DNA of 64,000 nucleotides from Psammoneis japonica. Its lineage: Eukaryota. The stretch spans positions 496,001-560,000 of the forward strand of contig QPGO01000022.1 of assembly GCA_008632985.1 (NCBI GenBank), written 5' to 3'. The notes under the pieces were generated by a model. That model ran no database searches, was not told the DNA's origin, and worked only from the letters and a program-made list of their open reading frames with translations. Every line of letters starts with the position of its first letter. The first letter of the stretch is position 1. The position numbers and the translations under genes were made by a program. Below, piece after piece: positions 27,523-55,600 of the stretch.

Positions 27523-27906
27523 AGTCCAAGGTCGAGGGGACTCCAAACAGACGATGCCACGGCTGTTTCGATAAATCGCTTCAGTAGGCTAGACACACTC
27601 TGTTTTGTGTACTCGTAGAAACTTTTAAATTGTGTCCTCCGTCAAATAAATCTTCCTACTGTACCTTTCTCCATGATCGCGACAACTCACGCAAATAAAA
27701 GTCACGGTGTGACGTGTGCTCGGTCGGTCCGCCTGCCGCCCGGCGGCCTGGCGTCTTGCGTTGATTTGGCATTTTTTTACCTGGTGTGGGCAAAGCTTTT
27801 TGATTAACTCGACTCGAGCGAAGCGAGAGTCAGCACGCCAAAGTAACCCGGATTTGAAAATAGACACAAAACCGCTCTCACACTTGCGTGAAGCACCCAT
27901 GTCACC

Positions 27907-30900: not shown

Positions 30901-32467
30901 GTGTTGAAGTTGGTTCGTCAATTGGTGGTTCAAGCCACCATTGAGTTTGATGCAGATGGCTGGCATGACATGACGAGATTCCTTGCCGACCATCGTGGCA
31001 TTGCTTCCATGGAGGACACACTTGACCACTTCTGCTTCAACCGAGAATTTTGGTGCCAGCGAGTCCAGACATGCCCCCCTGCCGCAAAGAAAGGAGCTGA
31101 CAACATTCGTGCTGTCCGGGACATGGTGCAATCTAATCCTGTCCTGAAAGAGTGCTGGAGTTCCAACCTGGAACAATGCTTCAACCGGTTGGAAGAAATG
31201 CACCAGAAAGGTCAACTCGAGGAATCTCGAGATGTGGCAATGCATCAGTGGGACGGCAAGGACAAGCATGGGTTGAATCTTTGGCTGCGTCAACGGGGAT
31301 CAAATCGGTCGGAGAATTTGCATCAGAAGATGCGGGTGGCGTTTGGACCCCATGGCATTGGTGCAAAGGTGGGGCACTTCTTGCTTCTCCTTGTCACGTG
31401 TCGACACAGTGTCAATGCTGGGGTGCGACGCAGTGGTTTCCATGACTTTGGCATGCCGCATCATGACATTGTTGATCGAATGCAACTTCGCATGACAAAG
31501 TTGTTTGCGTGCGATCCATTTCCCCATCACACCAACCAGTTGTTGTTTGAGCCAGCAAAGGATTTTGTTGCGGTTGGTGTGGGGCCATTAAATTATGATG
31601 CCAAGTTTGTTGAGCACCAAGACTCACCGGATCCCAAGCTCACAGGTGACTTGAAGTTTCTTGCTGGTGAGTGGCACCGTGCATTTCTTGATGACGTCGC
31701 TCTTGCAAATCTCACAGGAACGTTGCTCGGTCGCACTAGAACGCATGAAACTGAGAGGCCCCCCATTGCACATTAGCCATCCAAATGAAAAGCGAACATA
31801 CAATGATTTTCTAAAGGATCACCCGAAACCCACGTGGAAAACGTGGGTTGATTTGGCAAGCTTGTTCAAAATGAAAGCAGACTGTGTCACGATTTTTCCC
31901 AAGCTCCCTTCCATGCTCAAAAGCTGCTGCAACAAGTGGAAAGTCACACAGGAGTTGGTAATGCTCAAGGATTCTATTGGAGTGGACTGCTGTGGACTGT
32001 TAAAACAATTTGCTTGGCCAAGTCGGGAAGAACAGAACAAAAATCCGGCTGCTGTTTTTCAGAAAAATTCCAGCAAGCCCACCTTGGAGACAGCAGCAAA
32101 CGTGTTGGAGCAGACCATCACAGAGGCTGCATTCGACAATGATGATGCCATTTCCACCAACCCAATGCCAGTGGCACCATTGGTTGCTCCCACTCAAGCC
32201 ACCTGCATTGTCAGCGCCGACAAGGATGGACGCGGGGCAGACCGACGATGCTGCAGCGCCGCTCCTTTTGGATGCCCCAACCTTGCCAAGGACTGTTCAT
32301 GGCGGGGATGGCAACATTGCTCATTGGTCAAACGCAAGAGTGTTCTAGTGAATGCACCTGACTCAGAAGGGGAACGGAAAAGGTTGAAACGTGAGTGCAA
32401 CAAAAAGCGGTTGTCAGAGAGAATGGCAGAACTCAGAAAGAAGAAGGGAGCAGCAAGCAACAAGTGA
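27907..32467 (+). pseudogene. Transposase with inserted DEDDy 3'-5' exonuclease; introns about 29137-29211 and 31667-31739; in-frame TAA at 29350-29352; hypermutated
   Basis: Cys-rich Zn-finger region. DHSFK (first D), DRFH (DxxH) and RGSNRSENLH (E). Exonuclease motifs GIDSE, FDI and HAALD (expected YAALD) lie between the second D and DxxH. Confidence 0.75.
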
Positions 32468-32669
32468 GCAGCAATAACAACACTTCTATTACACCATAAT
32501 GTCATCATATTTTATCCCTGTAGACCAATGTAGACTGCCCTTACCGGCATTGTGCCATTGCTCTCATCGCACCGTAGGTCATCTTTGGACCGCCGAGTTT
32601 TTTGAGAAGTAGTTGGAAGTGCTGTGTGTGAATTGACTAATTTGATTCAAATCTCAAATGAAAATGACT

Positions 32670-32830
32670 CTCCTTATGTGTGATGTAACCTGAACCTAAT
32701 GTGCGGTATAAACTGATGACTCCTAGACGTCATCAGCGCCTTATGTGCGGTATAAATTTTATACCGCACATAAGGACAACGTATTTAACGAATGACCGTA
32801 AATGTCCATGGGGTCCTTATGTGCGGTATC
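32670..32830. repeat. Subterminal repeats CCTTATGTGCGGTAT, including a perfect 37-bp palindrome (32739-32775)
   Basis: Four to five copies in both orientations. The 18-bp arms CCTTATGTGCGGTATAAA surround a single T. Confidence 0.9.
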
Positions 32831-32923
32831 CCACACTGTTTGACGACCTGCCGTTGATTTCGGTCGATTTGCGGTACATTCCGTTGCGATAACCACTCTC
32901 CTGAAGCCTCACAGTACAGTAAA

Positions 32924-33187
32924 ATGACAAGGCGGTCGGTCGCTGCATTGGCTAAGCAAGGCGGTCGCACTGTGGTACGGGATCCAAGAAAGAAGCGTCT
33001 TCCAACTGTTGTGCCGCAGGGGCCACCTTCCGAACAACAGCCAGCTCACCCCTGGAGACAACAAACACTTCCGTTTCAGCCTAGCGATCAAAATCAGCGT
33101 GCAGTAGGATCATCCTTGGGTTCTTACGTCTTAATGGGAGCTGGAGTCGCTATTGGATTCACATTGATCGGCGCAATATTTGGTTAG
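32924..33187 (+). CDS. Small (87 aa) protein with a basic N-terminus and a C-terminal Gly-rich TM helix; copy 1
   Basis: AAAATG start context. The ORF is conserved in the duplicate at 49155-49418. Confidence 0.65.
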   Translation: MTRRSVAALAKQGGRTVVRDPRKKRLPTVVPQGPPSEQQPAHPWRQQTLPFQPSDQNQRAVGSSLGSYVLMGAGVAIGFTLIGAIFG

Positions 33188-33439
33188 AATGTAGCTACTG
33201 ATCCCTCTTTGTTTGACACGGAAAACGGATGTGTGATGAACTACCGCTGTGGTACAAGGCATTAGAATGAGTGAATTTAATGTCTATTCGCCACATTATT
33301 TCTAAGTTATGATTGTTTGTATGTGGATCTTCCATTTGCTTCTCCAGCAGCACCTTTGCAGCAGTAACAAAACTTTGCAAAGGTAGCCTAGTCCCACGTT
33401 GTTGCTTTCAAGCAGTAGCAAAGTCGTCTCCATGGTGCT

Positions 33440-34520
33440 TCAACGATCTCCAAAACGAGCAAGCGCTCGGCCATGCTCGTCTTTATTGCTGATAAAAAGT
33501 TAATGTACCTCGATCCCATTGAGCTCTTATGCAGTCCCATCGCACGTTTCGATTCATCGGGATCCATAAAAGCAACGTACCCTTCCCCAGTTGCTCTTCC
33601 GTCACTTCGGTATGTGAGGACAATGGATTCCTCAATAATGTTGTAGTCCTTGAAGAAGTCCTCGATATCTTTCTTCGTTGAACTAAATGGTAGGCCTCTC
33701 ATTCGAAGATAGCCAGTGTGCTCCCCGACCTGGATACCACCCCCAGTTCTACGGGTCCCGACCCCGCCGCCACCGCGGCCGCTCCTAATTGTTTGCTGTG
33801 GCACAGCCCCTTTGCCTCGAGTACCAGTGTTCCCCATACCGGTATTGCTAGTGCTGGCACCTGTGTACCCCTCCGTTTCTCCCACCATCTGGGTGGCGCT
33901 TGGAAGCCCTGCCCATGACTGTGGGACCGCTTCTGAGGGTGCTAGTAGCGATTCTCCCATACCGGCCTCTCCAGCTTGTTGCTGTTCTTGCGAGTGTTGA
34001 TGCCAATGTTGCTGAAAGAAACGCAGAACATCGGAAATTGAAAGAACAAGCGTCAGCCACGAATAATAGAGTGAGTCGTACTCACGAGTGGAGCGTGGAA
34101 CACTCACCGCTGCAATCGCCGCATAGTAGTCAGAACGTTTCCCCTGTAGCACTTCGATAAAGCGACGACCAATGCTTTGGCGGTCCCTCTGCATGAAAGA
34201 AGCGGCGCAGAAGCAAGGTGTTTGAGACCGGCAGGCGTTTCCACGTCCAAAGATGCGACGTGACGTTCCTAAACGTACCGTTGCAGCGCCATCTGAAAAT
34301 CCATTGGATTCGCAAAGACAACAAAAGCCTCACCACCAACATGAAGAACAACATCAATAACAACGAGGCCTTGGAAAAATACAAGTACGTCCTCGAGAGT
34401 TACTTCAAACGGCAGACCACGCAGCCTCGCACAAGGGAATGGCCCAAGAACCGACTCCAGCGGATCCGTCGACGACCCGAGCCCCGGAAGACCAGGCGGC
34501 AATGGAATTCCGTCCATCAT
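33440..34520 (-). CDS. hnRNP F/H-like (qRRM) RNA-binding protein, copy 1; 1-bp deletion near the C-terminus relative to copy 2
   Basis: ARLRGLPF, LRMRGLPFS, GEAFVVF and GRATGEGYVAF motifs. AAAAGTTAATG here versus AAAAGTTCAATG in copy 2 shifts RYIELF out of frame. Confidence 0.8.
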
Positions 34521-34630
34521 CGCGCCGTGGAGGTGGAGATACCTGCGGTATAAACACAAACACAACGCAGACTATCGAAAGTCACGGTAGACTTCCAGCA
34601 CGCAGACTTGATGTGTCCTCGCCTGCCGTG

Positions 34631-35503
34631 CTACCTGCCGCCCGGCCCATTGACAAGCTTGCCAAAGGGAGCTTGCGTTGATATGACTTCAGTCGATTCG
34701 AGATTTGCATTGCGATAATAACAACTACCTGAAGCCTCACAGTACAGTAAAATGATAAGGCGGTCGGTAGCTGTTGCTTGATGTTCTGGATTAAAGCCAT
34801 GCATTTTCCTCGCGTAAAGTGGATTCGTATCAGGTTCTTTCACCTTTTCTTCGTCGACAGGATCCTGTTTTTCTTGTTGAGCGACGACTTCTGTCATGGT
34901 GTCCGCATTTGCCACTTGAGAGTCCGGGACTGAGGAGGAAGCATCGTTAGTTGCATTTACTTCTGGTGTTGGAATTGCTCCCTTAGCGACACACGGTATG
35001 TCTGGAGCTTGTTGGTTTTTCAGAAACGACCTCACTGAAGCAAAAATATCTTCTTCCTCGTTACCAGAATAATCTTGGGCCTGTGAGTCGTCGTATTGGT
35101 TGTGACTCTGACGCGGTATGGGCTGCGCACGTTGCCGTTTTCTAGCCCGTCGCGGTTGCAATGAAGAAGCAGGCAGGTGCTGCTGGGATGCTTGAAAGTT
35201 ACTGTGGTTGACGTCTTGACTGAGGTTCAATGACAACTTTTGTTCGTAGACACTCGTTTCGTTGTTTGTTGAACCGAGTTCCTCCGGATAAACTTGAAAG
35301 TTACAGTGGTTGACGTCTTGACTGAGGTTCAATGACAACTTACGTTCGTAGACATTCGTTTCGATCTTTGTCGCATCGAGTTCCTCCGGATAAACAACTT
35401 CTTCCGCTTCTTCATCAGCCCAGAACACGTAGTTGCGAGGATCAAAGTCATCATAGGGATCGTCCATCATCTTGCTTTGTAGCAATGACAACCGAGATAA
35501 CAC
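34631..35503 (-). CDS. Hypothetical acidic protein with a 102-bp (34-aa) internal tandem duplication
   Basis: 290-aa ORF with the repeat VYPEEL...KLSLNLSQDVNH.NFQ twice. Its 3' end runs into a partial duplicate of the small-gene promoter. Confidence 0.45.
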   Translation of the reverse strand: MLSRLSLLQSKMMDDPYDDFDPRNYVFWADEEAEEVVYPEELDATKIETNVYERKLSLNLSQDVNHCNFQVYPEELGSTNNETSVYEQKLSLNLSQDVNHSNFQASQQHLPASSLQPRRARKRQRAQPIPRQSHNQYDDSQAQDYSGNEEEDIFASVRSFLKNQQAPDIPCVAKGAIPTPEVNATNDASSSVPDSQVANADTMTEVVAQQEKQDPVDEEKVKEPDTNPLYARKMHGFNPEHQATATDRLIILLYCEASGSCYYRNANLESTEVISTQAPFGKLVNGPGGR

Positions 35504-35604: not shown

Positions 35605-36060
35605 TCGGACAAATTGACCAGGAGTTTATGGTGGGGGTCGATTTGTCCACTATCGATTTTAAGAACACGTAAACATGGGGTGGACAAATCTACCAGGAGT
35701 TTATGGTGGGGGTCGATTTGTCCACTATCGATTTTAAGAACACATAAACATGGGGTGGACAAATCTACCAGGAGTTTATGGTGGGGGTCGATTTGTCCAC
35801 TATCGATTTTAAGAACACATAAACATGGGGTGGACAAATCTACCAGGAGTTTATGGTGGGGGTCGATTTGTCCACTATCGATTTTAAGAACACATAAACA
35901 TGGGGTGGACAAATCTACCAGGAGTTTATGGTGGGGGTCGATTTGTCCACTATCGATTTTAAAAGAACACATAAACATGGGGTGGACAAATCTACCAGGA
36001 GTTTATGGTGGGGGTCGATTTGTCCACTATCGATTTTAAAAGAACACATAAACAAGGGGT
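35605..36060. repeat. 75-bp minisatellite, about 6 near-identical copies with internal dyad symmetry
   Basis: Units start at 35617, 35692, 35767, 35842, 35917 and 35994. GATTTGTCCAC/GTGGACAAATC and GTTTATG/CATAAAC are inverted pairs. Confidence 0.95.
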
Positions 36061-39779: not shown

Positions 39780-40003
39780 TGCGATAACTCTCGTCTGAGA
39801 GTCAGGGGAAGTCGACTGAGGTCGAGTAATGGATGTATCGCTAGCGAAGAGGGCCAACGATAACGGTATGATTGGTAAAGCTGCTAATGTCTTGTTACAC
39901 TAGATGTTGTAATTGTGAGAAAAGTTGAAAAAGACCGATGGCGGGAAATCGCATACGCAAGTGAGCGCGCGCGTATCGCGCATGAGTTCGTACTGTGTTG
40001 ACA
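39780..40003 (-). repeat. 3' LTR of copia-2 (TpA-intact copy)
   Basis: Aligns without gaps to 47245-47468 with 17 substitutions. Confidence 0.96.
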
Positions 40004-40009
40004 CTCCCT

Positions 40010-43000
40010 CTCGAACGAAGAAGCTGCCAACCGCAAAGCAACTTTCGAATAGCCTCGAATTTAACCGTAACGAGACCTTTAGTCAGAATATCAGCGCGTT
40101 GCAAGTCTGTTGCGATCTTGGACACAGTAACTCGATTTGGTTTGAGCTGTGAACGGAACCAATGACATTTGATTGCGCAGTGCTTGGACCTTGGCGTCAC
40201 TCGGCCAGGTTCCACATCAGCCAGAGTCAAAGCCCCAGCATTGTCCTCCCACACAGTGGTGCGAATGGTTTTGGTGGTCCCCAGACCAACTCCAATGCCT
40301 TGAGAGATGGCTTGTACAGTGCGCAGAAAGGGAAGGACAGTTTTCATGCAAGTGGAAAGAGCGTTGCACTCTGCTTCCATTGTTGAGAGAGCAATTTCAG
40401 GTGCAAGCTTGCTGGGCCAAACAACAGGACAGTTGGAAATGCAAACGACAAAACCTGTTCGGCTTTTGACACAAGCCGGGTCATGCTTGTCTTCGTGTGG
40501 CCACAGTCCAGCAAAATCTGAGTCAACAAACACGTCAATGTTGAAGTCCCCAGATGGCTTGAGGATCAAGCCTTCATCCAGAGCACCATTCAGGTGTCGA
40601 CCTGTCCGTTCAAGGGCTGGTTCATGCGAGTGACGAGGGCCATGAACAAATCTGGCTGCTGAGCTAACGGCGCAGGTGATGTCTGGCCTGGAGTGGCCTT
40701 GAAGATGTTGGAGCATGCCAACCACACTGGCACAATTGTGGGCTCCATTTGGTGGGTCTCCATCGGTGTCCTTGACCAACGGAGCGGCCAGTGCGGGCGT
40801 TCGGGCCTTTGGCAGATGGCCCACGTCAAGGGCTTCGACGACACGTTTGGACAAACCGCTCTGAGTGAGCTTGACAGCACCATTGTCGGTGTCGCGTTCG
40901 ATGTGGACCCCTGAAAAACCTGCGACGGAATCTTCAACTTCGATGGCCAGACCGCCATCAATTTTGAGTTTGTTGATCACTTCGTCAATGTGCTCTTGTT
41001 TCGGAGAGAAGAACAATGTGTCATCAACATGCACGAGGCAGATGACTTTGTCGGATGCAAACAAACACGGATCAACATCGTCTTGCGATTGAAATCCGGC
41101 GTCTTCGAGTTTTGACTTGAGGTGCAGGAAAAAGTTACGAGGTCCTTGCTTGAGACCATGCACGGTCCGTTTGAGTTTCAGCACTTTGCCGGGCTTGGTG
41201 CATCCGCGAGGCATCTGCACAAAGATGCCAGAGCGTTCTCGCTCTTCGGGTGTCATGGTGTCCCATTTGGGATCCTTGTCAATCGGAGCATGGACGAAAG
41301 CGGTGACATGATCAACTTGTTTCGTCGACAGTTCCAAAATTTGAGAAAGTGTGAGCACAAGCCGTGCGGTCGTCCAATTGACAACTGGAGCAAAGGTGTC
41401 AAAGCAGTCGACACCTTCCAATTGCTTGTCTCCACGGACGCAAAAGCGGGCTTTACATTTGCGGATCGACCCATCAGGGTGTCGTTTGCACTTGAAGGCC
41501 CAAGTGGATGGTAAGACGTTCATCCAATCTTGGCGGTCTGCTTCTTCCCAGGCGTCTTTGCCTTTGACTAGAGAATCGATTTCGACGTCGCAAGCTTTCA
41601 GACAAGCTGCTCGATCAGGACCATTCATTGCTTCTTCCCAAGTTGGATTGTCAGCGGAATTTGCATTCGCTGCGAGGGCAAGAGGGTGCATTTCTTCGAG
41701 TGTTCCGTGAACTTGATCGGTGTTTTTGTTGAAAAGGTCAAGCATTGCGCGCAAATCTTTAGACCGGAGTGCATTTGTGATGCTGTCCCAACGCAAGGCC
41801 ATCAAGAACTGTTTGTTCAGTGTTTCTGACTTGACAGTGCGTTTGGGATTCTTGCAGGCATTCGGCAACTCGTTGGGCGGAATGCGGATGTCGGCATGCA
41901 TGGCTTCGATCAAGCGTTCCGGCTTCTTGACGGAACGACCGCTTCGAGTCCGAGTGGGTGGTGTGGCAGCATTCGGAGCAGGTTGAGGTTGCTCAGCTTC
42001 GGCAGGACCCAGGTCGAGGTCTTCAGGTGAGTCGTGATGATCGACAAGCGACAATTCGTCGTCGCTGTCATCGCTGAACTCATTGATCTCGACTCCCTCT
42101 GGAGCCTCTGAAGTTGCAGATTCTAGATCGTCAGCAGATGATTCAGGCAATGTGGGAAGTGAAGTGACAATTCGTCGTCGCTGTCATCGCTGAACTCATC
42201 GATCTCAACTCCCTCTGGAGCCTCTGAAGTTACAGATTCTAGATCGTCAGCAGATGATTCAGGCAATGTAGGAAGTGCTCCCTCTGGAGCTGTGACGGAA
42301 GAGGTTGAAGGAGGGACGGCGGGAGGGGCTGTTTTGGAGTTTTGAAGATGACGTTGACGGGGGTCGTGTCGAAGATTAGCGTGATGACGGCGCTCTGCGG
42401 GTGTCAACCAATCATTGTGTAAAGCCGGCAAGTGACGGCAAGGGTCATCGGCTGTGTCGGAAGGCTCAGGCGGAGCATTGTGTGCCAGCGAGTTGGCGGT
42501 GAGGAGGGATTCCCAAAGGTCGGCAGTGAAGGGAACACCCTGGAAGAAACCGCCAGAGTCGCCATTGGGCACTGTTGCAAAGTGGTCATTGTAGACCACG
42601 TGATGCTGAGGACTAACGTGGCCCATCGAGAGATTCAAAATGAGGCCAATGTCAGTTGAATGATCCGGTGAGATGCCGAGATGTTGGCCACGGCGACTCC
42701 TGGGGTCCCACTTGGGTGGTTTCTTTCCGTCTTGTAACTTGGGATCAAGAACACATGCAGGGCAACCCCACACTTGTAAGCGCTGCAGGTGCGCACAGGT
42801 GTCGAAGCGTTGCTTGGAAAAAATTCGACCGGCGCGGTACGAGTGTCAGACTTCGGGACATGGTTCCACAAGTGGGTCGCATGGGTCATGGCAAAAGGCC
42901 ACAACTCAAGGTTGGCGGCATCAGGCCACATGAGAATGGCGTGCAGGAGCACAGCTCGTGCCCATGAAGTGATGGTTTGGATGGAGCGCTCGGCTGCGCC

Positions 43001-44094
43001 GTTCTGATGATGAGCGCCAACACCAGAAAAATCAACAGTCTGGTTGTTTTCTTCTGGGTCGTCCATGAAAGCCTTGGTGCCAAACGGGACGTTGTCAGCA
43101 AGGTGGGACTTGATGCGGACCCCAAATTGGTCACTAAGCTGCTCGAAGGATCACTTGGCACGAACAGTTTCACCTGCGGTGAGACCAACTTGATGGGTCA
43201 GACAGACGCAGGCAGAAGCATGATCAACAAAAATTGTGCCTCCACAACACTTGTCTTTCTTGGGTTCGCGTCCCTTGGACGTCGGAAGACGGCCAGGGAC
43301 ATGGCTGATGTGCTGATCAACGGAGACGCGTTGACCAGGCGCCAAATCTCCCTGTCGCAAAGTCAACGGCGGATGATTGGAGGTGCCGCGACGGTCAGGT
43401 GTTCGTCGTTTCTGCTTTGCGAGTTGACAGGCAGCACATGAAGGTGCAGTGCAACTGGAGACGGCTTGTGTTGAAGGCTTGACAATGTGGGATTTGGTGG
43501 GATCCCGTGGTGTTGCACACAAGCATTGAATGTGTTGGAAGCCGGCATGACCAAGTTTCTGATGGAGTGAGAGAAGCTCCTTCTGGCCGGGTGTTAGATT
43601 CTGATTGGTCTGAGAAGCAACTGAAAGAAACGAAGTGAGGCGTGCTTTGGTGCTGACGGGAGCCAAATTGCATTGTGTGACTCCGGCTGAGATTGGTTCG
43701 GACATCATCACAAAAGGCAAGTTGTTTTCTTTGTTGCACGGGAACTCGAGTGCATCCCCTTTCAGAAGAGTGAGGGTTGCTTTGTTTCCTCGTACACGAC
43801 ATTCACCTTGGTTTCCATTCTCTTGAAAACAGGCTTGTGGGCTAAAGAGTCGAATGGAAGCGTCGGGAACACAGTGGGCTCGCGTTCGGACGGTCCGGAT
43901 ACATTCCAACAATCGATTGCGTCCCATTCCACGAAACCTTGACCAACTGCTCGGGTGCTGGAGGACAATCCGTTGATGGCAGTGGTGCCAACGGGTTCCA
44001 GCGGTCCTGTAAAGTCACTTGAGTGGGGTGTGAGCGACGAAGATGCTCCTGTGTCAAGAACAATGGGTGCGTCAACAGGCAAGCACGATGTCAA
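40010..44094 (-). pseudogene. copia-2 pol (protease, GAG-pre-integrase, integrase, RT, RNase H), broken into several frames
   Basis: VLDTGAS, HQKLGHAGF..C..CQLAK, HQNGAAER, WGCPACVLD, KARFCVRGD, VHGLKQ, LVHVDD (expected YVDD), FVDSDFAG and QRADILTKGL motifs. Confidence 0.92.
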
Positions 44095-45182
44095 TGCTTG
44101 ACATTGGCGGCCTTGAGATCTCTTGCATCATTGAAGGATTTGACATGCTGCGTTGGATCGTCGGTCAACCATGGTGGGTCCGACTCGGATGCAGCAACGT
44201 GAGATGGACCTGTCATGGTCTGGTGAGAGAACACAGCCACTCCACCGAAACCACTCGTAAAGGTTGCTGTTGTCGTGCGTGACAGGTCAGTTGCGATGCA
44301 AGAGAGCATCGGCGCTTGACCACAAGCTCGCAACATTTCGGAAGAGGCAAGTGTTTTGATCAAATGGAGCTGTTCTAAAGGATCAATGCCTTGAACAAAT
44401 TCGTCTGACGAATGACCGCACTGCATGTCGCACATGATCCAGGTTTGGTGTAACAGTCGGTGCTTGATGCGGTAGAACTCTTCCAGTTCGGAAGCTTCAG
44501 GGTCGTCTGGAGGTGCAAAAGGTGAGGGCTCCGTTCGTGTCGCGGAGCTACGAGGTTTGGTCCTCAGGCAGTCACCTGGAGGATCAAGCAAAGTGACGAA
44601 ATCAGTTAAAGTCGCACCATGAGGAAACTCGTACATCTCGGAAGGCAGATGCAACAGGCGATGTTTGATTTGAGAATGGGCTTCTGTGGCCTCTTGTTGA
44701 GGATCGACGCAGGCAAATCTAGGTGGTCTCGTTTTCCTGGGTTTGAATTGACGTCTCGATCTTGAGAGTTTCCACGACTTGGATTTTCGACAGGAGCGAT
44801 CCGGATCGGCTGCCGTTGTGTTGTCCGGAACAGGCGTTCGGCGCTGTTTACGCCAAGTCGTTGGATGAAGGAAGGACCACAAGGGGTCTCTGCTTGGGAT
44901 TCGAACTGAGCGCCGATCCAAGCGGCGAACCTGAGAATGATGTGTCATCCGAGTTCGATCAGGAGGACGACGAAATGAGGTCAGTTCGAAAGTGGGAACA
45001 ACAACAAAGTCGGGAAGATCGTCGTATGAAAGCGAAGGATTCTTGGAAAAGAGAAGCAAGCAGAACAAAAATCCACCTGCCAAAACAAACAGCAACTGAC
45101 AAATCGACGAAACTGCTTCGATCCCTCCCTCTCCAAGAATCTGGAGAGTGAACCACAGGAGCAAAAAGTGACCAACCGACAA
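44091..45182 (-). CDS. copia-2 ORF between gag and protease with two N-terminal hydrophobic segments
   Basis: 363-aa ORF. FLLLWFTLQIL and ICQLLFVLAGGFLFCLLLFS segments. Duplicated IKHRLLH motif. Confidence 0.5.
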   Translation of the reverse strand: MSVGHFLLLWFTLQILGEGGIEAVSSICQLLFVLAGGFLFCLLLFSKNPSLSYDDLPDFVVVPTFELTSFRRPPDRTRMTHHSQVRRLDRRSVRIPSRDPLWSFLHPTTWRKQRRTPVPDNTTAADPDRSCRKSKSWKLSRSRRQFKPRKTRPPRFACVDPQQEATEAHSQIKHRLLHLPSEMYEFPHGATLTDFVTLLDPPGDCLRTKPRSSATRTEPSPFAPPDDPEASELEEFYRIKHRLLHQTWIMCDMQCGHSSDEFVQGIDPLEQLHLIKTLASSEMLRACGQAPMLSCIATDLSRTTTATFTSGFGGVAVFSHQTMTGPSHVAASESDPPWLTDDPTQHVKSFNDARDLKAANVKH

Positions 45183-45275
45183 ATGAGCCTGGATGTCCCT
45201 TCCAGGAACGGACGGTTGGTTGAAAAGGAAAGAAGAGGGGGCTGCACGCTCAGGAGAGGAGGCGCGCCCGAAGCT

Positions 45276-46765
45276 TCAGGTGAAGGAGGCGAAGAGGCCG
45301 GACACAGTTTTGACCATCTCCTTCTTGGCATTGGCAATGGCGAGGTCCCGATCCGTGACGGGAGCGGAAGCCGGTGCCGGAGCGGGCGCAGCGGCCGGAG
45401 TGGGAGAAGGTGCAGCGGCAGGAGCGGAGGCAATGTTCCCCGTCTCAGTCACCGGGCGCCAGCGCTTGGTTTTGCAATGACAGCAATGATCCTCACCATC
45501 GATGTTGCGGTGACTGTTGTTGTTCTTTTCGGCTTCAGTCGGTGGCTGCCATTTCTCAGGAATGGGTTTGGCAGAGGGACCGGAAGAGGAGGATCCCGAA
45601 GAGTTGTTCTTGCGTTGAGCTTGTTTCGCGTCAAAGAAGAGCTTCTTGTCAGCACGAACACGAGCGTCGTCGACCGGTGTCTTGCAGTTGGACAAAGAAT
45701 GAGGGCCGCCACAGTTAAAACAAGTGATGACTCCCGCAACGAACGAAGTTGCTTGTTTCTTGGCAGACACGCCGGACCACTTGTCGGAGGAGACAAGAGC
45801 GAGACACTCGCCTTCGGCAAAGGATAAAATGTCATCCACCGCAGCAGTCGTTGCAGCAGTCGTCGAGCCCGATTGCTTGAGTTTGGAGGTCTTGGAGTCC
45901 TTGGCAAGGTGCTCGAAGAGAGAATTGAACTCGGGAACACTCGACGTTTGAAAGACTTTGGCGAGATTCTCCAGAAAATCAGTGGGAATGACAGACTGTC
46001 CTTTCTGATCCTGGAGATTAGTGAGGCGAGAACAGCCACCGCGAATGAGAGATGCAACTTTGCTTGCGTCTTCTCCATCGAAGTCAGTGATCTTGAGGTT
46101 GGTTGTGTTGGAAACCAAACAACGAGCAGCCTCTTCGGAGTTGCTCTGAAGGAGTTTCATCATGAGAACGAAGAAAAGAGGTCCGCCCTGTTCTTCCTGA
46201 TCACATTTGAGGTGCGTCTGTTGACTTTCTTCTGCAGTGCAATGGACGCGTTCCGCTCGAAGCAGTCGTGAGTAAGACGAAGGTTTTGGCTCGCCCAAGT
46301 CCCATCGGGGTCCTCGAGCATGGTTGAATGCCATTTGTTGCTTGCGGCGACCTCCGTTGCGGTGATCGTGGAGTGTTCCTTGTAAAGATCGCGCGTCGTG
46401 AATTTATCCGGGTCGATGATGGTGAAGACGTCATCCATGTCATGCTTGACATGGTTCGAACGCATGGTTGAAATGGACATCGCGAGGTCACAAGCATCCT
46501 CGAGCTTGTCAGGATCGTTGATGTTGACGTTGAGGAGGTCAAATTTTGTCTGCTGTTTCGAAGTCGCCTTCAGAAAGAGATCGTTGAGCTTGTCAGGATC
46601 CAGCCTGTTCCTCTGCTCCTCAGTGTAGAGGGCAGCAAGAGTGTCTTGCGACGCTTTCGGCATCGCGCGCACTTTCACCTTCCGTCCATCAATGGTCACC
46701 TCGGACATGCTGGCTGGCAGAGAAGGAGGGAGTGGAATGCTCGCTGCTTTGCTCGGCATGCGCAT
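45276..46765 (-). pseudogene. copia-2 gag with CCHC zinc knuckle (frameshift near 46210)
   Basis: CFNCGGPHSLSNC. ORFs 46160-46765 and 45276-46334 overlap at a frameshift. Confidence 0.85.
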
Positions 46766-47130
46766 TACGCAAGAAAGCGCAGATTCTTCGGATGACGGTT
46801 GGTTGAATTACCGCCATCCGTGCGGATGTGTGCATGTTGTTCTGCAATGCAAAAGACAGTTGCTTGACGGTCTTGGACAGCAACGGAGCATCGAAAGTTC
46901 CGGATTTCGTTAGTTGTGACGACTCGGTCGCCCACACGAAAATCCGCGACGGTTGGCTCCCGTGTGGTTGAAGTAGAAGTGCGAGCGGTTCCGGCTCGCG
47001 TTGTCGCAGCAAGGCGATTCTGCCGTTCTCTTTCCGCGGCAATGCGACGAACAAGCTCTGCTTCTTGAAGTTGCAGGGCTTGCAGTTGTTCAACAAGGTC
47101 GTCAAGTGTCGCAGAGTTCCTTTCGGACAT
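46765..47130 (-). CDS. copia-2 small upstream ORF (coiled coil plus KOW/SH3-like FRVGDRV motif)
   Basis: About 121 aa. Its stop codon overlaps the next ATG (TAATG at 46763-46767). Confidence 0.55.
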   Translation of the reverse strand: MSERNSATLDDLVEQLQALQLQEAELVRRIAAERERQNRLAATTRAGTARTSTSTTREPTVADFRVGDRVVTTNEIRNFRCSVAVQDRQATVFCIAEQHAHIRTDGGNSTNRHPKNLRFLA

Positions 47131-47230
47131 GTGCAACACTCACGTAGAATTGCATGCAAAGAATGTGTGGAGCTCACTTCTCGTCCACCGGAGAGAAAGA
47201 GATGAGCGCAGGAGTGATCAAGCGTGACAC

Positions 47231-47244
47231 TTGGGCTCCTAACC
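47231..47244 (-). other. Primer-binding site of copia-2, complementary to the 5' half of initiator tRNA-Met
   Basis: The - strand reads GGTTAGGAGCCCAA right after the 5' LTR, one mismatch from GGTTATGAGCCC and close to the half-tRNAiMet PBS of Drosophila copia. Confidence 0.8.
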
Positions 47245-47468
47245 TGCGACAACTCTCGTCTGAGAGTCAGGGGAAGTCGACTGAGGTCGAGCAATGGATG
47301 TGTCGCTAGTGAAGAGGGCCAACGACAATGGTGTGATTGGCAAAGCTGCCAATGTCTTGTTGCACTGGATGTTGCAATTGTGAGAAAAGTTGAAAAAGAC
47401 CGATGGCGGGAAATCGCGTGCGCAAGTGAGCGCGCGCGCATCACGCATGAGTTCGCACTGTGTTGACA
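47245..47468 (-). repeat. 5' LTR of copia-2 (TpA-mutated copy)
   Basis: 13 of the 14 TpA sites in the sister LTR are CpA/TpG here. Confidence 0.96.
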
Positions 47469-47473
47469 CATCG

Positions 47474-48960
47474 TGGTGCTTTTCTAGAAGTGAGATCCAA
47501 ACCTGAGGCACCGCTTTGCGCCAAATCGCCAATGACACAGCACACTGAACCAACTTGAATGGATCACATGGTGAATTCTAAATTCTTCAGTCCCCTCAAG
47601 TCGATGAACTGAACAACGAGTCGGCTTGACCCAACTTGCTCTCCAGCCACATTTGATCACTTCAACATGACAAGGGAACCCTGGCAACCTGCACCAAAAA
47701 CCCCAAAAGGGGCAAAAGGGAACCGGGTGTGAAAGACAACTGGTCTTCACAGATGTCGTGGGGAAGATCATCATCCCCACAAGTCCACCTCACTTCATGC
47801 CGCCACACATGATCTTGGCTGTGAGATCCACCAGATTGAATTCCAAACACATGTGTCCAGTGAGTGACTCGCCCATTGACACCAACTCCCTCATGGCGTG
47901 GCGGCAAACAGAGTTTGACTTCTTCTTCAAAGTGGACTCTGGACTCTGCGTGTTGTGGATGGCTGGCATGTTGTCCCCACAGATGCAGGATGGACCAGTC
48001 AATGGCATGCCCATCATCCTCAACTTGTGTCCCAAGCTGTGCAAAGACTCCATTCCTTGCTTCATGGCTGCAAACTTGGCTCCAAAAACCATGCAGATGA
48101 AGAAGCCGGTGTGTGAGTGCCTCATCAACTCATCATTTGCATGGTCCAAGTCAATGAATGAGTGCAGATCTGCCTTCAAGCCCAGAGGTTCTGGTGCATT
48201 GGATGAGATTGCTTCCTGCATGTCCCCACAAAATGACTTCCAGCTGCATTCCTTAAAGTCAGAAGTGTCAATGTGTTGGGATGTGTCAGGTCAAACACCA
48301 ACCTGGCATTGTGTCTTGCCTTGAGGCAGCCACACACATGGAGTGCAGCTGCGAGGTGACCCTCCCTGGGCATGGCAAGAAACAAGGCAAGCTTGGAAAC
48401 CTCAATTGTCAGATCAACACAACCAAGTTCTGCTGTCCATCGCAGGACGCCTGCCTGTGACTGGTGGGGCTGGGCATCTTCTGCTTCAAGCTCAGGCAAC
48501 ACATCCAACTCAGGACAACAATCCCATCACTCACAACCACAGGTCCATTGAGGAAAATTGCTTCAGAAGCACGACACATGTCATTGGCAGGAGCATCAAA
48601 GTCCACAGTGGAAATGCCAAATTGACTCGTGATGCCCGCATGCAAGGATGTGATGCAAATGCACAACAGATTTTTCCATTTCTGGTGTCCCACTTCGCCT
48701 TCATGGCCCACGCTCTGTCGGAACATGCATCGTCAGAAATGGATTCAAAAGGAGCATTCAAAGTGACTTCACAACTTTCCCGTGCATGGAGAAACATTTG
48801 AAAGTCTGTTTGAGATGAACACGTGGACACTTCAATCACGTTTCCATTGCCCGCTGCACTGCACCACACTCCGCGGTGCGTCACATCGGCTCCATTGATG
48901 CCATCAAAGGTGTGTTGCATTGCATTGATCATGTGTCCCACTCATGTGGGACCATTCAAG
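47474..48960 (-). mobile_element. Old copia relic (RT C-terminus and RNase H), TpA- and CpG-depleted
   Basis: GVLRW..ELG.VD...EVS, PREGHL, CGDNM and ESTLKKKSNS motifs in ORFs 48176-48508 and 47790-48221. Confidence 0.85.
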
Positions 48961-49154
48961 ACTGATGGTTCCGCGTCTGCAACAGTGGACTTCTAGCACG
49001 CAGACTTGATGTGTCCTCGGTCGGTCCGCCTGCCGCCCGGCCCATTGACAAGCTTGCCAAAGGGTCAAAGGGAGCTTGCGTTGATGTGATTTCAGTCAAT
49101 TTGAGATTTGCGCTGCGATGACAACAACTGCCTGAAGCCTCACAGTGCAGCAAA

Positions 49155-49418
49155 ATGACAAGGCAGTCGGTCGCTGCATTGGCCAAGCAAGGCGGTCGCA
49201 CTGTGGTGCGGGATCCAAGAAAGAAGCGTCTTCCAACTGTTGTGCCGCAGGGGCCACCTTCCGAACAACAGCCGGCTCACCCCTGGAGACAACAAACACT
49301 TCTGTTTCAGCCCAGCGATCAAAATCAGCGTGCAGTAGGATCATCCTTGGGTTCTTACGTCTTAATGGGGGCTGGAGTCGCCATTGGATTCACGTTGATC
49401 GGCGCAATGTTTGATTAG
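49155..49418 (+). CDS. Small 87-aa TM protein, copy 2 (carries TpA/CpG substitutions)
   Basis: Paralog of 32924-33187 with R4Q, P->L, I->M and G->D changes. Confidence 0.6.
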   Translation: MTRQSVAALAKQGGRTVVRDPRKKRLPTVVPQGPPSEQQPAHPWRQQTLLFQPSDQNQRAVGSSLGSYVLMGAGVAIGFTLIGAMFD

Positions 49419-49677
49419 AAGTCAAAATGTAGCTACTGATCCCTCTTTGTTTGACACGGAAAACGGATGTGCGATGAACTACCGCTGTGGTACAAGGCAT
49501 TAGAATGAGTGAATTTAATGTCTATTCGCCACATTATTTCTAAGTTATGATTGTTTGTATGTGGATCTTCCATTTGCTTCTCCAGCAGCACCTTTGCAGA
49601 AGTAACAAAACTTTGCAAAGGTAGCCTAGTCCCACGTTGTTGCTTTCAAGCAGTAGCAAAGTCGTCTCCATGGTGCT

Positions 49678-50758
49678 TCAACGATCTCCAAAACGAGCAA
49701 GCGCTCGGCCATGCTCGTCTTTATTGCTGATAAAAAGTTCAATGTACCTCGATCCCATTGAGCTCTTATGCAGTCCCATCGCACGTTTCGATTCATCGGG
49801 ATCCATAAAAGCAACGTACCCTTCCCCAGTTGCTCTTCCATCACTTCGGTATGTGAGGACAATGGATTCCTCAATAATATTGTAGTCCTTGAAGAAGTCC
49901 TCAATATCTTTCTTCGTTGAACTAAATGGTAGGCCTCTCATTCGAAGATAGCCAGTGTGCTCCCCGACCTGGATACCACCCCCAGTTCTACGGGTCCCGA
50001 CCCCGCCGCCACCGCGGCCGCTCCTAATTGTTTGCTGTGGCACAGCCCCTTTGCCTCGAGTACCAGTGTTCCCCATACCGGTATTGCTAGTGCTGGCACC
50101 TGTGTACCCCTCCGTTTCTCCCACCATCTGGGTGGCGCTTGGAAGCCCTGCCCATGACTGTGGGACCGCTTCTGAGGGTGCTAGTAGCGATTCTCCCATA
50201 CCGGCCTCTCCAGCTTGTTGCTGTTCTTGCGAGTGTTGATGCCAATGTTGCTGAAAGAAACGCAGAACATCGGAAATTGAAAGAACAAGCGTCAGCCACG
50301 AATAATAGAGTGAGTCGTACTCACGAGTGGAGCGTGGAACACTCACCGCTGCAATCGCCGCATAGTAGTCAGAACGTTTCCCCTGTAGCACTTCGATAAA
50401 GCGACGACCAATGCTTTGGCGGTCCCTGTGCATGAAAGAAGCGCGCAGAAGCAAGGTGTTTGAGACCGGCAGGCGTTTCCACGTCCAAAGATGCGACGTG
50501 ACGTTCCTAAACGTACCGTTGCAGCGCCATCTGAAAATCCATTGGATTTGCAAAGACAACAAAAGCCTCACCACCAACATGAAGAACAACATCAATAACA
50601 ACGAGGCCTTGGAAAAATACAAGTACGTCCTCGAGAGTTACTTCAAACGGCAGACCACGCAGCCTCGCACAAGGGAATGGCCCAAGAACCGACTCCAGCG
50701 GATCCGTCGACGACCCGAGCCCCGGAAGACCAGGCGGCAATGGAATTCCGTCCATCAT
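49678..50758 (-). CDS. hnRNP F/H-like (qRRM) RNA-binding protein, copy 2 (intact); introns at about 50245-50340 and 50430-50515
   Basis: Two qRRMs (ARLRGLPF..GEAFVVF..RFIEV and LRMRGLPF..GEGYVAF..RYIELF). Normal stop codon at 49678. Confidence 0.88.
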
Positions 50759-51309
50759 CGCGCCGTGGAGGTGGAGATACCTGCGGTATAAACACAAACA
50801 CAACGCAGACTATCAATGGATATGCTTCAAACTCACAGGCTGCAACAACAATGAGGTCATCTGTTGGAACGGGGCGTTGGCCCCACGCCAGCGTGCTCCT
50901 CTCCACAATTTTTGGCTTCCTGCCGCTCCTCCCGATCATGCTTCTTTTCACGCCGGGCCCACGGGAACGACCAGTAAAACAACTACGTACGAACAACCCG
51001 CGTAAGGAACGTACGGACAGTCAAATCAAAAGTCGCGCCATCGAAACGATGCGTTACGTACAACCACCAACGAATAAGTAAATGTGAAAAACAAATTATT
51101 CAACTTCGAATAAATATTACGGCAGGACAGTCGTGGATTTCGTAAGTGATGAGTAGAAATCAACGCAGAACACTTATCAAAATATTCATATACAGCATTG
51201 AATGACTAATTCTCAGATTTATGTCAACATGTTCTCGAGCTCTGCGAGCTACAAAAAACACGAAAGCCATAGTCTGTCCACCCACCCGCAAAAAATCGCA
51301 GCGACGAAA

Positions 51310-51694
51310 AATGCCAAGCGCTGAAAAACAGCGACGACGCCAACGAACGCTCACCCGTGGTGATGATGTATCGGTATCATCTGACCGCCCCACGACGGGT
51401 CCATTGGATACCCATACATTACATGCTGCGGTGGTATTGGGGCTTGCATTGGCTGCTGCGGTGGATGAGGAGCCTGATGCCCTTGAGGCGGTGCACCTCC
51501 TGGGGCACTCTCCTTCTTCCCCTTCTCCATCGTCCTTCGTGGATGAAGACGTCAACCTTGTTTCTGTTTATGTTTTGAGTAATGTATATATCTTTGCGCA
51601 TGCCGGTATGTTTTTACCTTCAAATCACGTAGAAAATGCTTTTGCTCTCCTCTCAAATATATCAAGAATTCATGTTCCATACGAGTTGGCGTAG
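51310..51694 (+). CDS. Possible hypothetical protein (first exon?)
   Basis: ORF with AAAATG start and hydrophobic stretches. No recognisable motif. Confidence 0.25.
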
Positions 51695-52638: not shown

Positions 52639-55600
52639 TTAGATTACTTCTTTCAGACCCAGTTCTTTACCTGCCTCTGCGGCGGCTTCGAACGAAGCCT
52701 TTGAGCTAACAACTGCAACTGACGGGTTCTTCATATGCCTAAGCCGCTCCGCGAAATCACGGAAGTCGGAAGGCTTTGTGTCCATAATCTCGTCTCTGTA
52801 CGACTGCCGCCGTTCGGCACTTTGACGAACGAGCCATTGATTGAAGGAGGTGAACCCCTTTTGGTCGGGAGAAAGAGCTCCGTCCAAATCACCTACTGCA
52901 CCAATGATTGCAGTTGCCAACGCTTCTGGATCTTTTTCCAAATCATCTGCGGCAGCCATCAATGCGTCGGCCGTGGCATCGTAGACATCAAGGGTGGTCG
53001 CTAAGTTGGGATCGCGGTAACTTAAATAGGAAAAGAAACCATTTCCTGGGTTGAAGGTGCAGAAGCCACCGTACGCCCCACCAATGACTCGTACGTTGTC
53101 CCACAAGTAACCCGTTCGAAGGAAACGCGACACCACTGCAGTCGAACCGTCGACTTTTTCACCAACATCGTACAACAAACCTCCTTTTCCAACGTATGAG
53201 ACTTGAGTTGGCACAACGAAGCCTTCATCGGCCAGAGGAGCAACCGCCTTCATTTCCTCCTTGGCTTTGGCGACCCAAGGATGCTCTTCGACGTAAAAGT
53301 CCGGGAGTTTCTTGCCATTGCTATCTCCAGGGAGGTCATTCAGGAATGCTTCCAGGCTAGGTTGGATTTTCTCTAGGACTCGTTGGTCACCTGTAATGTC
53401 AACAACCATTCCGTCCCTACACGTGCTTTCGTCCAGGATGGTGCTCCTCATGCGTTCGAGACGTGAATGCACAGATGGCCAGTCTTCTTCCGCCTGCTTC
53501 AGGAGATTTTTAACTGTGTCCAACGCAGAAATACCTCCCATTTTCTCTTCAATATAGCCTGGTACATCGTAGCGAGCTTTAAGACGCGTGTTTGCGTAGG
53601 AGTGCCCCGATCCCTGGATGCTAGATTCCAAACGAGATCGGGTCTCTTTCAGCATTTCGACGACCTTGCTCTGGGAGTCGAGGTTGGCTTCGGTGAGGAT
53701 AAGCTTGAATAACGAGAAAAGCTCGCCAGTATTGTCACTAGTGGCCTTCCCCTTGATGAGTAGCTTTGCCACCATGTTGTTTCCGTCCATCACCAAACCA
53801 TCCGAGAGACCATCTGGCCTCACCGGGGATGCAAAAATATCAACGTTTATGCCGCCGGTGTGGGTACCGATTCTGCGAGATAATGCAACATCTGAGAGTT
53901 CTCCCGCACCAGTCTCAAGCATGATACGCGAAAATAGAGAAAGCAGTGGGGTGTCTTCGAGATCCAAGCTGGAGATATCGACAGCAAAATTGACGTACGC
54001 GATTCCAGACGTGGATCCTAGCTCATGGCGAATTACAGTGACACCAGAATCATTCTCATTTTCCGTCACTGCAATGGGATACTCAGTCGCCTCTCGTTTC
54101 AAATCTTTAAGCTCCAAGCTAGGAATTGTAGCGCGAGCCTCGGGAGGATCCTCAGTCGCCTGCAGCTTCTTCAGCTCGATCGTTTTGTCGATGATGTCTT
54201 GAAGTTCGTCGTCACTCAAAGATGATTTGATTGACGCTAGGCGTTCCTCTTCGTCCTGCAGGTTGTGGACGACGAGACAGCTTGTGAGGAAGAGGGAGCT
54301 AAGGGGCAAGAGGGAACGACATATTCCACTCAATAAGACTTACCTTTAGTTGTTCGGCCTCCAGAGTCTTAGACGGCACCATTTCAACCGTTGTGCGGTG
54401 AGAGTTCTCGAGCAGAAGGTTCTTAATCATATCCTGGAACACCTTGGATCCAGATTTGGCAATCTCAGCCTTGAGTTCTGCAAGAGGCTCTTCGAATTTG
54501 AGTGCATCAGTCGGTTTCATGTCATACAACCACTTTGACATAGAACCGAGCATGAACGAAAGACCTCTTGGAAAGGATCCGGTGTTGAATTCACGCATCT
54601 ACAAAAATAGCAAAAGCGCAACAATTCAGCGAAAACGGACACTCAATAGGCGAGGGAAGCAACGACGAACGTCATACCTGAAATTCGATGGTATTCATAG
54701 ATGATGCAATCGCATCGTCAGTAAATCCCTCTTCCGCTGCTTTCGTTAGTGTGTCAATAATGAGGTCCTGCACAGCTTTGGTGTTCTCAGGCTGTACACC
54801 CTTCAGTCCCATGCTGAAGGTAGCCTGCAGCAACTCATCGGAAAGACCACCTCCGGTAATGGCTTCTCCAAGGCCGCTCTCCATTAGCGATTTGCGCAGA
54901 ATACTCGAAGGGGTGCCCACCAACAAGTGATCCAAGATATTCACAGTCAATTCCTCCGTCGGAGTGAACGGCTTGTCGTTCAATAACCAATTCATCATGA
55001 CCATGTGGGTTGAGGGTTGGTCAGCGCCGGCAGGGTAAAATTGGCGGGAGTCTCTTGGTTCTGCAAATTTCTTCTCTTGCCAGCCGATTAGGCTGGCGGG
55101 TTTGCTTTCTGGAGATTCGTCAAACTCAGAGAGATACTCATCCATAAGCTCCAACCGAGTGTAAACATCGTCGTCACCAGAAAAGTAAATACGAGAGTTA
55201 CTAGGATGGTAGAACTTGGCGTGAAAATCCGCAAACTGCTCAAACGATAAATCTGGGATCACGGAAGGGTCTCCGCCGCTGTCAACAGAATACGTGTTGT
55301 CCGGAAAAAGAGACCGTTGAGATTCCCGGTTCAAGAGAGAATCGGGAGAGGAGTAAACGCCCTTCATTTCATTGTACACTACGCCCTTGTAGGTGAGTGG
55401 CTGCTCCTTGTCTTCGAGCTCTAAATGCCACCCCTCCTGAGCATGAACCATAGGGTCGTCAATAGCACGTGGGTGGTAGACAGCATCCGTGTAGACGTTA
55501 ATGAGGTTGTAGAAATCCTTCAGGTTCTGACTGGCCACAACGTAGCATGTACGATCTGGGTAAGTGAAGGCGTTGAGGAAAGTTTGAAGACTACCTTGAA

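Follow-up and report, generated by a model that had tools for sequence, protein, structure and literature searches.

The window analysed here, a whole stretch of 64 kb from the diatom Psammoneis japonica (assembly GCA_008632985.1, contig QPGO01000022.1, positions 496,001 to 560,000), holds a duplicated two-gene unit composed of a gene for a protein of 87 amino acids and, convergent with it, a gene with two RRM domains. The unit occurs as two long copies, A and C, and its upstream part also as two partial copies, B and D. Copy C begins inside a domain poor in the dinucleotide TpA, which also includes most of a Copia retrotransposon (Copia2), and extends from there into DNA of ordinary composition. 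An earlier note on this DNA had described a hypermutation that leaks out of the relic of a transposable element (TE) into the duplicated gene next to it, as a gradient, and then stops. The features on which the argument depends are given below (ORF, open reading frame; UTR, untranslated region; LTR, long terminal repeat; TSD, target-site duplication; O/E, ratio of observed to expected).

32855-34576, plus strand: copy A, TpA-normal, the reference state
32924-33187, plus strand: 87-aa ORF of copy A, with the ancestral residues kept
48982-49420, plus strand: part of copy C inside the depleted domain, with the upstream region, the 5′UTR and nearly the whole 87-aa ORF
49155-49418, plus strand: 87-aa ORF of copy C, still open, with R4Q, P50L, I85M, G87D and 7 synonymous changes
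49421-50814, plus strand: part of copy C outside the domain, which keeps all 56 TpAs of A
49528-51500, minus strand: two-RRM gene of copy C, convergent with the 87-aa ORF, stop codon at 49678, spliced frame open
34584-34773, plus strand: partial copy B, upstream region and start of the unit, TpA O/E 0.90 (normal), with changes of its own
about 27700-27770: partial copy D, region upstream of the 87-aa gene, with 22 nt identical to C where B differs, including the TpA at 34632
about 40130-49420: continuous TpA-depleted domain, offset from Copia2 at both sides
39780-47468, minus strand: Copia2, LTRs 39780-40004 and 47245-47469, RVT_2, TG..CA ends, TSD CATCG
47474-48981, no strand assigned: exhausted block (the TE relic of the earlier note), TpA O/E 0.03, CpG O/E 0.36

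Comparison of the copies

Copies A (32855-34576) and C (49087-50814) align with 97.5% identity over 1,732 columns. If A (32896-34576) is taken as the reference for the fate of the TpAs in C, then of its 67 TpAs all five at 49128-49335 have been converted, followed by two of the six at 49336-49420, a transition zone between the TpA-free and the TpA-normal parts, and none of the 56 at 49421-50814 (7/11 versus 0/56, Fisher test, p=3.8e-7). The alignment thus agrees with the earlier note, which had counted seven changes from TA to TG or CA in the copy beside the relic, all five TpAs near 49132-49315 and only two beyond, and had found the TpAs kept after about 49430. The seven sites, TA in A and TG or CA in C, are at 49147, 49151, 49184, 49208, 49313, 49382 and 49409 of C, and they form part of 13 substitutions between A 32896-33187 and C 49128-49418, every one of which is a transition; the other six are two CpGs that have become CpA or TpG in C, two sites with CpA in A and CpG in C, one GA to GG and one GG to GA.

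In the first 290 bp of the duplicate the TpA asymmetry is 7:0, and in the opposite direction only one of the 61 TpAs of C is TG in A (49878 in C, 33639 in A). Transitions at CpG go both ways, with 5 of the 101 CpGs of A being CA or TG in C and 3 of the 98 CpGs of C being CA or TG in A. Outside the affected part, over some 1390 bp, the copies are 99.4% identical, with 8 substitutions and 2 one-base indels. As to composition, C 48982-49335 has a single TpA (48994) in 354 bp, with an O/E of 0.06, and A 32896-33187 has 11, with a host-like O/E of 0.66 (0.61-0.66 in host DNA). Contigs of run X1 are an exact match to C over 48884-49238, which covers four of the seven conversions; their variant letters at 46580-48704 show no consistent TpA pattern and probably come from other copies.

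TpA changes distributed uniformly along the duplicate, or equally in both copies, would have spoken against the earlier note, and the pairwise alignment that it had proposed contains neither, the seven conversions being situated at the 5′ end of C, where A has none. Its further claim, that duplication alone is no trigger, also stands: TpA content is normal both in the 1.39 kb that make up the rest of the duplicate and in the tandem repeats at 35.2-36.1 kb. A process of the type of repeat-induced point mutation (RIP), triggered by duplication and striking both copies, would leave another picture than the one found here, where 0 of 56 TpAs have changed in the greater part of the repeat and the 5′ part has been hit in C only.

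Farther upstream the comparison is with copy B, against which (34590-34730) the earlier note had reported additional losses of TA in C, and this holds only in part. B is 84% identical to C 48982-49176, and none of its 10 TpAs is TA in C. Three of these are supported as ancestral by A, namely two common to both copies and one of the pair 34716/34719; on the other hand, two are specific to B on comparison with A, and that at 34632 is derived in B, since copy D agrees with C, so that part of the apparent loss reflects changes in B. The remaining TpAs of B could not be polarised. The near absence of TpA from the upstream region of C holds independently of B. With copy D, the upstream segment becomes a small repeat family within the window.

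Polarity of the changes in the 87-aa gene

The 87-aa protein is small and conserved, with a C-terminal hydrophobic segment, and has 10 homologues (44-66% identity) in MMETSP and environmental sources. No Pfam family was found for it, and DUF2076 was rejected as sub-threshold (best E=0.0099, 13 bits versus a cut-off of 38). At the four positions where the proteins of A and C differ, the homologues have R in 9 of 10, P in 10 of 10, I or L in 10 of 10, and G in 10 of 10; A shows this outgroup state at all four, and C has Q, L, M and D. The four amino-acid differences are therefore derived in C, which makes C the derived copy and A the ancestral one, and it is indeed the copy on the side of the relic that has changed, with consequences for the amino acids of the 87-aa ORF, as had been proposed. 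Between the two ORFs, 7 of the 11 differences are synonymous (ratio of nonsynonymous to synonymous differences per site, pN/pS, 0.19), and 2 further differences fall in the 5′UTR. Two of the four replacements in C, P50L and G87D, affect near-invariant positions.

The edge of the domain

The gradient of which the earlier note had spoken is not supported, a step being in agreement with the data. Of the TpAs at 49336-49418 four survive, in the codons of V61, Y68 and L70, which are invariant in the family, and in the stop codon, and the non-coding TpAs at 49430-49654 are intact in 15 of 15 cases. The apparent decay of TpA over 49336-49418 may have been produced by selection on copy C, and the true edge of the mutated stretch may be confined to 49409-49430. 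The boundary thus looks more like the edge of a domain, possibly sharpened by selection, than like a gradient, and at its tightest (49409-49430) it offers a base-pair-resolved site at which chromatin marks, methylation and transcription could be compared.

Beyond this edge lies the two-RRM gene, which has three introns (50251-50346, 50425-50515 and 50779-51352) with GT..AG ends when read on the minus strand. These introns are removed from one contig of run X2, which matches C without difference over 49528-50781; the type of the run is a guess, and the simplest reading, in view of three canonical introns, is that this contig is of RNA origin. To the left of 49506 the X2 contigs leave a blank, which is not used as evidence here, and such contigs cannot fix the true end of the transcript. 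The domain ends at or just before the stop codon of the 87-aa ORF, ahead of the region of the spliced RRM contig. The 5′ exon of the RRM gene (51353 onward) lies outside the duplicate, which leaves the RRM copy in A truncated; at 33501 this copy has a 1-bp frameshift as well. The decay of the duplicated unit has been reciprocal: A keeps the ancestral 87-aa gene and a damaged RRM copy, and C the reverse.

The Copia elements and the direction of the process

Copia2 has the properties of the Ty1/Copia group (RVT_2, E=1.5e-22; LTRs 92.4% identical over 225 bp; a 5-bp TSD), and the window contains a second such element:

6233-13348, minus strand: Copia1, LTRs 6233-6516 and 13065-13348, RVT_2

The LTRs of one element are identical at insertion. 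Those of Copia1 now differ at 13 sites, 11 of which are TA on the right and TG or CA on the left, with none in the reverse sense; those of Copia2 differ at 17, with TA on the left and TG or CA on the right at 13 and again none reversed, the other four being three CpGs changed to TpG or CpA and one CpA changed to CpG in the depleted copy. Transitions account for 11 of the 13 differences in Copia1 and for all 17 in Copia2, mostly from A:T to G:C in the depleted copy. With such one-sided differences, the boundary of depletion must run through individual elements. In Copia2 the stretch from 39780 to about 40128, on the side of its 3′ LTR, has been spared (TpA O/E 0.81), with depletion only from about 40130; in Copia1 it is the 5′ LTR and leader (12443-13348) that form a spared island of about 900 bp, with an O/E of 0.93. 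The spared end is therefore the 5′ LTR in one element and the 3′ LTR in the other, with no consistent rule by element polarity.

The three polarised comparisons pooled (copies A and C and the two LTR pairs) give 31 conversions, 11 to TG and 20 to CA, so that both strands have been hit. Four A-to-G changes at CpA or GpA are also found in the depleted copies, so that the specificity for TpA is strong, though perhaps not absolute. TpAs preceded by a 5′ A on either strand were converted in 14 of 15 cases and the others in 17 of 27; among the TpAs that survive in the depleted blocks of the window, the contexts TTAA, CTAA and TTAG are 2.3-3.3 times over-represented, and ATAT, ATAC and GTAT reach 0-0.2 times the expectation. 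These figures suggest a preference of the hypermutation for (A)TA / TA(T) contexts.

The limits of the domain are not those of the element, as it stops 350 bp inside the left end of Copia2 and continues for 1.9 kb beyond its right end, defined by the TSD; changes made before integration would be limited to the element, which is not what is found. From the TSD, positions 39779 and 47474 were adjacent before Copia2 was inserted. The left flank has a TpA O/E of 0.48 and is called TpA-normal; the right flank, 47474-48981, is exhausted. This block is more decayed than the domain as a whole (TpA O/E 0.10, CpG 0.83) and is thus probably older than Copia2. Its designation as a TE relic in the earlier note found no support, as none of its 6 stop-to-stop ORFs had a Pfam match at E≤0.01 and no transition-blind homology to it appeared in the window; the matches of 63-64 columns (82-84%) returned by a BLAST search of the window with purine/pyrimidine-coded sequence were dismissed as noise.

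The direction of the process can also be followed in the reverse transcriptase (RT) of Copia2. Among 343 matches in all, 120 relatives were listed and the best 40 of these aligned; columns where 70% or more of these have Tyr were taken as conserved. At none of these 11 columns does Copia2 keep Tyr (6 His, 4 Cys, 1 Phe), in comparison with 62-100% kept for all other residue classes, and a change from TAY to CAY or TGY (Y, pyrimidine) is exactly one from TpA to CpA or TpG. The usual RT motif, Y-x-D-D, is HVDD in Copia2 and YVDD in Copia1. The relatives of the Copia elements include sequences from Cylindrotheca and Nitzschia, and among the 120 listed for the Copia2 RT only one (P0169) is poor in Tyr. 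Of 80 metagenome loci with relatives of this RT, with a median TpA O/E of 0.64, two show the signature, L060 (1-1789; TpA O/E 0.04, CpG 0.20) and L017 (1-1693; TpA O/E 0.21), and close DNA similarity to the window is absent from both.

TpA depletion across the window

The 1-kb windows of the 64-kb stretch split into two TpA classes, and the depleted class forms five blocks, listed here with one further gene.

1-6232: depleted block, also CpG-poor (CpG O/E 0.11)
6233-12440: depleted block, part of Copia1, TpA O/E 0.19
13349-17409: depleted block, also CpG-poor (CpG O/E 0.18)
28000-32470: depleted block, including an ORF with a 3′-5′ exonuclease domain
40130-49335: depleted block, 52 TpAs in 9206 bp, TpA O/E 0.10
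52639-54333, minus strand: PreP peptidase ORF, with its closest matches, of about 70% identity, from Attheya, Odontella and other diatoms

Together the five blocks contain 172 TpAs in 30,178 bp (5.7/kb), with a TpA O/E of 0.04-0.19 and an O/E of 1.3-1.9 for CpA and TpG; the remaining 33,631 bp contain 1,398 TpAs (41.6/kb), with an O/E of 0.61-0.93. The most TpA-rich 1-kb window has an O/E of 0.78, so that the stretch has no TpA-enriched window. The hypermutation of TpA is confined to discrete domains with mobile DNA, two of the five blocks being Copia elements. The oldest blocks are in addition CpG-poor (O/E 0.11-0.36), whereas the young Copia elements are TpA-poor with near-normal CpG (0.83-0.90). 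Tyr makes up 0.13-0.75% of the ORFs in the depleted blocks versus 1.65-3.2% of host ORFs. Elsewhere in the window, where there is no paralog, TpA edges are also abrupt (12443/12588, 17410, 32475 and 40128/40315).

In the blocks 1-6232 and 13349-17409 no Pfam match above cut-off was found among 28 ORFs, and a match to HCMV_UL139 in ORFs of the old blocks was rejected as sub-threshold (18.5 bits versus a cut-off of 25). The block 28000-32470 has near-contiguous ORFs on the plus strand, one of them with a DNA_pol_A_exo1 domain, whose closest Atlas clusters consist of hypothetical proteins from fungi, in part with DUF6729; 3′ of the sharp edge at 32475 comes TpA-rich DNA (32700-32830) with palindromic TGTGCGGTATAAA copies, and then copy A. 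This block may be a DNA transposon with a spared terminus. The loss of TpA has also erased TAA and TAG stops in the depleted blocks (for example at 6457-12420), leaving ORFs that overlap in several frames and measure 200-390 aa, in one case 1987 aa, and stop-free blocks of this kind would mislead gene callers into long spurious ORFs in all frames. The tandem repeats at 35191-35395 and 35607-36060, with units of about 102 bp and about 75 bp that are 91-98% identical, are situated in or beside an ORF at 34631-35470 (minus strand); they have TpA at a normal level, which is another sign that repetition alone is no target.

Explanation and alternatives

We consider it likely that a TpA-specific hypermutation from A:T to G:C, operating in chromosomal domains defined by position, overran part of copy C and then stopped. 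It would strike chromosomal DNA on both strands, once elements have been integrated, and within discrete domains that hold transposons and whose limits would be a matter of position, not of TE ends or of homology. The domain at about 40130-49420 would take in most of the young Copia2, the older exhausted block, and the first 350-440 bp or so of the two-gene unit, that is, its promoter region, its 5′UTR and most of the 87-aa ORF, for which the untouched paralog A would display the ancestral letters. The sequence comparisons demonstrate the signature, its polarity, an action that follows both integration and duplication, the mismatch between domain and TE, and the sharp stop. The chemistry would be an enzymatic deamination of adenine in DNA, in which A becomes inosine and is read as G, and the domain would correspond to silent chromatin, with an edge set by the active neighbouring gene. 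A rough hand calculation gives an excess of about 100-fold per site (7 of 11 TpAs against 8 differences in 1390 bp), which assumes that the 3′ part dates the duplication and fails if that part was later homogenised, the edge and the polarity in C being unaffected.

Several points weigh against this explanation: (i) it concerns a single locus; (ii) for the seven synonymous differences and the two in the UTR, polarity would rest on the signature, the agreement of A with B at three sites, and the four amino-acid sites; (iii) the converted sites of the ORF for which one synonymous path existed took it in 4 of 4 cases (p=1/16=0.06, calculated by hand), which means that selection shapes what is seen; (iv) over 49239-49628 run X1 gave an A-like contig only, and the letters of C there rest on the assembly, with the proviso that contigs drop variants and that the A-like contig is not taken as absence of the C sequence; (v) other edges in the window, with the left LTR of Copia2 and the 5′ LTR and leader of Copia1 spared, argue against a simple outward leakage such as the earlier note had placed in TE chromatin, and the island in Copia1 misfits simple spreading, having depleted DNA on both sides; (vi) a 7-bp indel (49419-49425) lies between 49409, where the last TpA has been converted, and 49430, where the first non-coding one is kept, and a gene-conversion tract could end at such a point; (vii) and finally, the differences other than those at TpA are denser toward the 5′ end (6 in the first 290 bp versus 8 in the next 1390 bp), which might reflect a longer divergence time of the 5′ part, in other words, a later gene conversion of the rest.

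The last two points lead to the alternative that survives best, although we hold it to be unlikely, according to which the step would not be mutational: the 300-440 bp at the 5′ end would simply be older, and 49421-50814 would have been homogenised later by a gene conversion ending at the indel, with purifying selection on the RRM gene in addition. The roughly fourfold density of non-TpA differences in the 5′ part would fit this history, as would the greater divergence of copy B than of A. Gene conversion, however, cannot yield a 7:0 asymmetry at TpA or a ratio of 13:0 between transitions and transversions, and TpA within C itself jumps from an O/E of 0.06 to normal whatever the history of A. 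Nor was selection the protector of the 15 intact non-coding TpAs beyond the edge; A was no possible donor across 49740 once frameshifted, and equally sharp edges occur in the window without any paralog. At most, gene conversion weakens the estimate of the rate.

Much less probable is a reversed polarity, in which A and B would have gained TpAs by a RIP-like change of C to T at CpA/TpG, as parts of a repeated locus at 32.8-34.8 kb. A and B are certainly adjacent partial repeats with TA in common at two sites where C has TG or CA, and if they were sisters, parsimony could not polarise those two sites. However, this would have to be reconciled with the four derived amino acids of C, with a TpA content that is host-like in A and nearly nil in C, with a window that has no TpA-enriched kilobase, and with the change of Tyr to His or Cys at 10 of the 11 conserved columns of Copia2, which settles in what direction the process works in this genome.

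To the same degree we doubt that the RNA or cDNA of the TE was edited before integration, in the manner of ADAR or APOBEC, and that the changes in the host gene are coincidental. A change of A to G with a preference for a 5′ U or T is typical of ADAR according to a recent preprint (bioRxiv 10.64898/2026.01.13.699255), and the editing of cDNA could make two LTRs differ, but the same changes appear in DNA that is not TE and has an unmutated paralog, they affect both strands, the domain is continuous over the end of the TE and the insertion site defined by the TSD, and the block at 28.0-32.47 kb is depleted as well without any RT match. Least probable of all is an artefact of assembly or of base calling at modified bases of heterochromatin, which could invoke the fact that none of the listed X1 contigs matches C at 49239-49628, but not the X1 contigs free of differences over 47580-47932, 48062-48323, 48884-49058 and 49035-49238, at a single-copy depth of about 61-67, nor the same signature in the environmental contigs L060 and L017. 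Two other ideas were rejected, GC-biased gene conversion by reasoning, as it is not dinucleotide-specific and should give no one-sided LTR differences, and TE families natively poor in TpA on the grounds of the LTR asymmetry and the Tyr to His or Cys changes.

Relation to known systems

RIP changes C:G to T:A at CpA, thereby making TpA, is triggered by duplication, and degrades TEs. The process proposed here resembles it as a dinucleotide-specific hypermutation by transitions that degrades TEs, and differs from it in its mirror chemistry, in which A:T becomes G:C and TpA is destroyed, so that the direction from CpA to TpA is not the one found, in the 1.39-kb repeat left untouched at 99.4% identity, and in a host lineage that is not fungal. 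In ascomycetes, a leakage of RIP into adjacent single-copy genes has been described, with the damage limited by selection (Rouxel et al., 2011, PMC3105345). The 350-440 bp of the host unit inside the domain are comparable to that leakage by analogy only.

APOBEC editing of LTR elements is reportedly a deaminase editing of retroelements before their integration. With APOBEC and ADAR editing the present case has clustered transitions in retroelements in common, ADAR being described as preferring a 5′ U; it is unlike them in that DNA other than TEs and both strands are affected, and in that the LTRs differ by chromosomal position. The decay of methylated CpG in silenced TEs, for its part, cannot remove TpA. 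The CpG-poor oldest blocks and the 5 changes of CpG to TpG or CpA in C, against 3 in the opposite sense, are like such a decay; the young Copia elements, TpA-poor with a near-normal CpG, are not.

A search of the literature outside subscription journals gave a single matching phenomenon and nothing for diatoms. This is the TpA hypermutation of integrated viral DNA in the chlorarachniophyte Bigelowiella natans (Mettrop et al., bioRxiv 10.64898/2026.01.13.699255), where mutation-accumulation lines show the same signature as de novo mutations at about 1000 times the background and adenine deamination is put forward as a hypothesis, with an ADAT2-like protein as candidate deaminase. The two cases share a near-exclusive change of TpA to TpG or CpA, on both strands, in discrete domains of foreign DNA, with a very large excess over background; here transitions make up all 13 substitutions of the affected stretch of C, and 31 TpA conversions were counted. 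The same source reports TpA-poor clusters, rich in CpA and TpG, that are enriched for RT and DDE domains, and a region of a nucleocytoplasmic large DNA virus (NCLDV) whose limits were moved outward by about 21 kb to follow the mutation rate, so that in B. natans, too, the domain may differ in extent from the insert. The differences are (i) the host, here an ochrophyte, a diatom, of a different supergroup; (ii) the targets, here LTR retrotransposons and old relics and there inserts of giant viruses and virophages; (iii) the depth of the depletion, far greater here (0.03-0.19) than the O/E of 0.45 given there for the NCLDV; (iv) the nature of the evidence, historical here (paralogs and LTR pairs) and de novo mutation there; (v) and finally, the spill-over into a host gene and the sparing of LTRs, which the accessible portions of the Results and Discussion on B. 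natans do not describe.

Significance

More tentatively, and with greater doubt than confidence on our part, ochrophytes and chlorarachniophytes may have in common a defence that deaminates adenine at TpA, aimed by chromatin and not by homology, working at 100-1000 times the background, with edges that shift as new TEs arrive and that erode the neighbouring genes. With P. japonica this mirror image of RIP would be known from two lineages, and it is here that LTR retrotransposons would for the first time be its targets. The paralog provides proof of an action on resident chromosomal DNA and not on intermediates of the TE, which goes beyond what mutation-accumulation data alone can give, and the locus adds both evidence that the target is defined neither by repeat homology nor by the ends of TEs and an example of a conserved host gene that has suffered collateral damage. 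If such a defence exists, host genes situated beside insertions would be silently eroded and could eventually be killed, with duplicates allowing the damage to persist until it is seen, and the spared LTRs, together with the stop ahead of the region of the spliced RRM contig, would mean that transcriptionally active DNA is immune.

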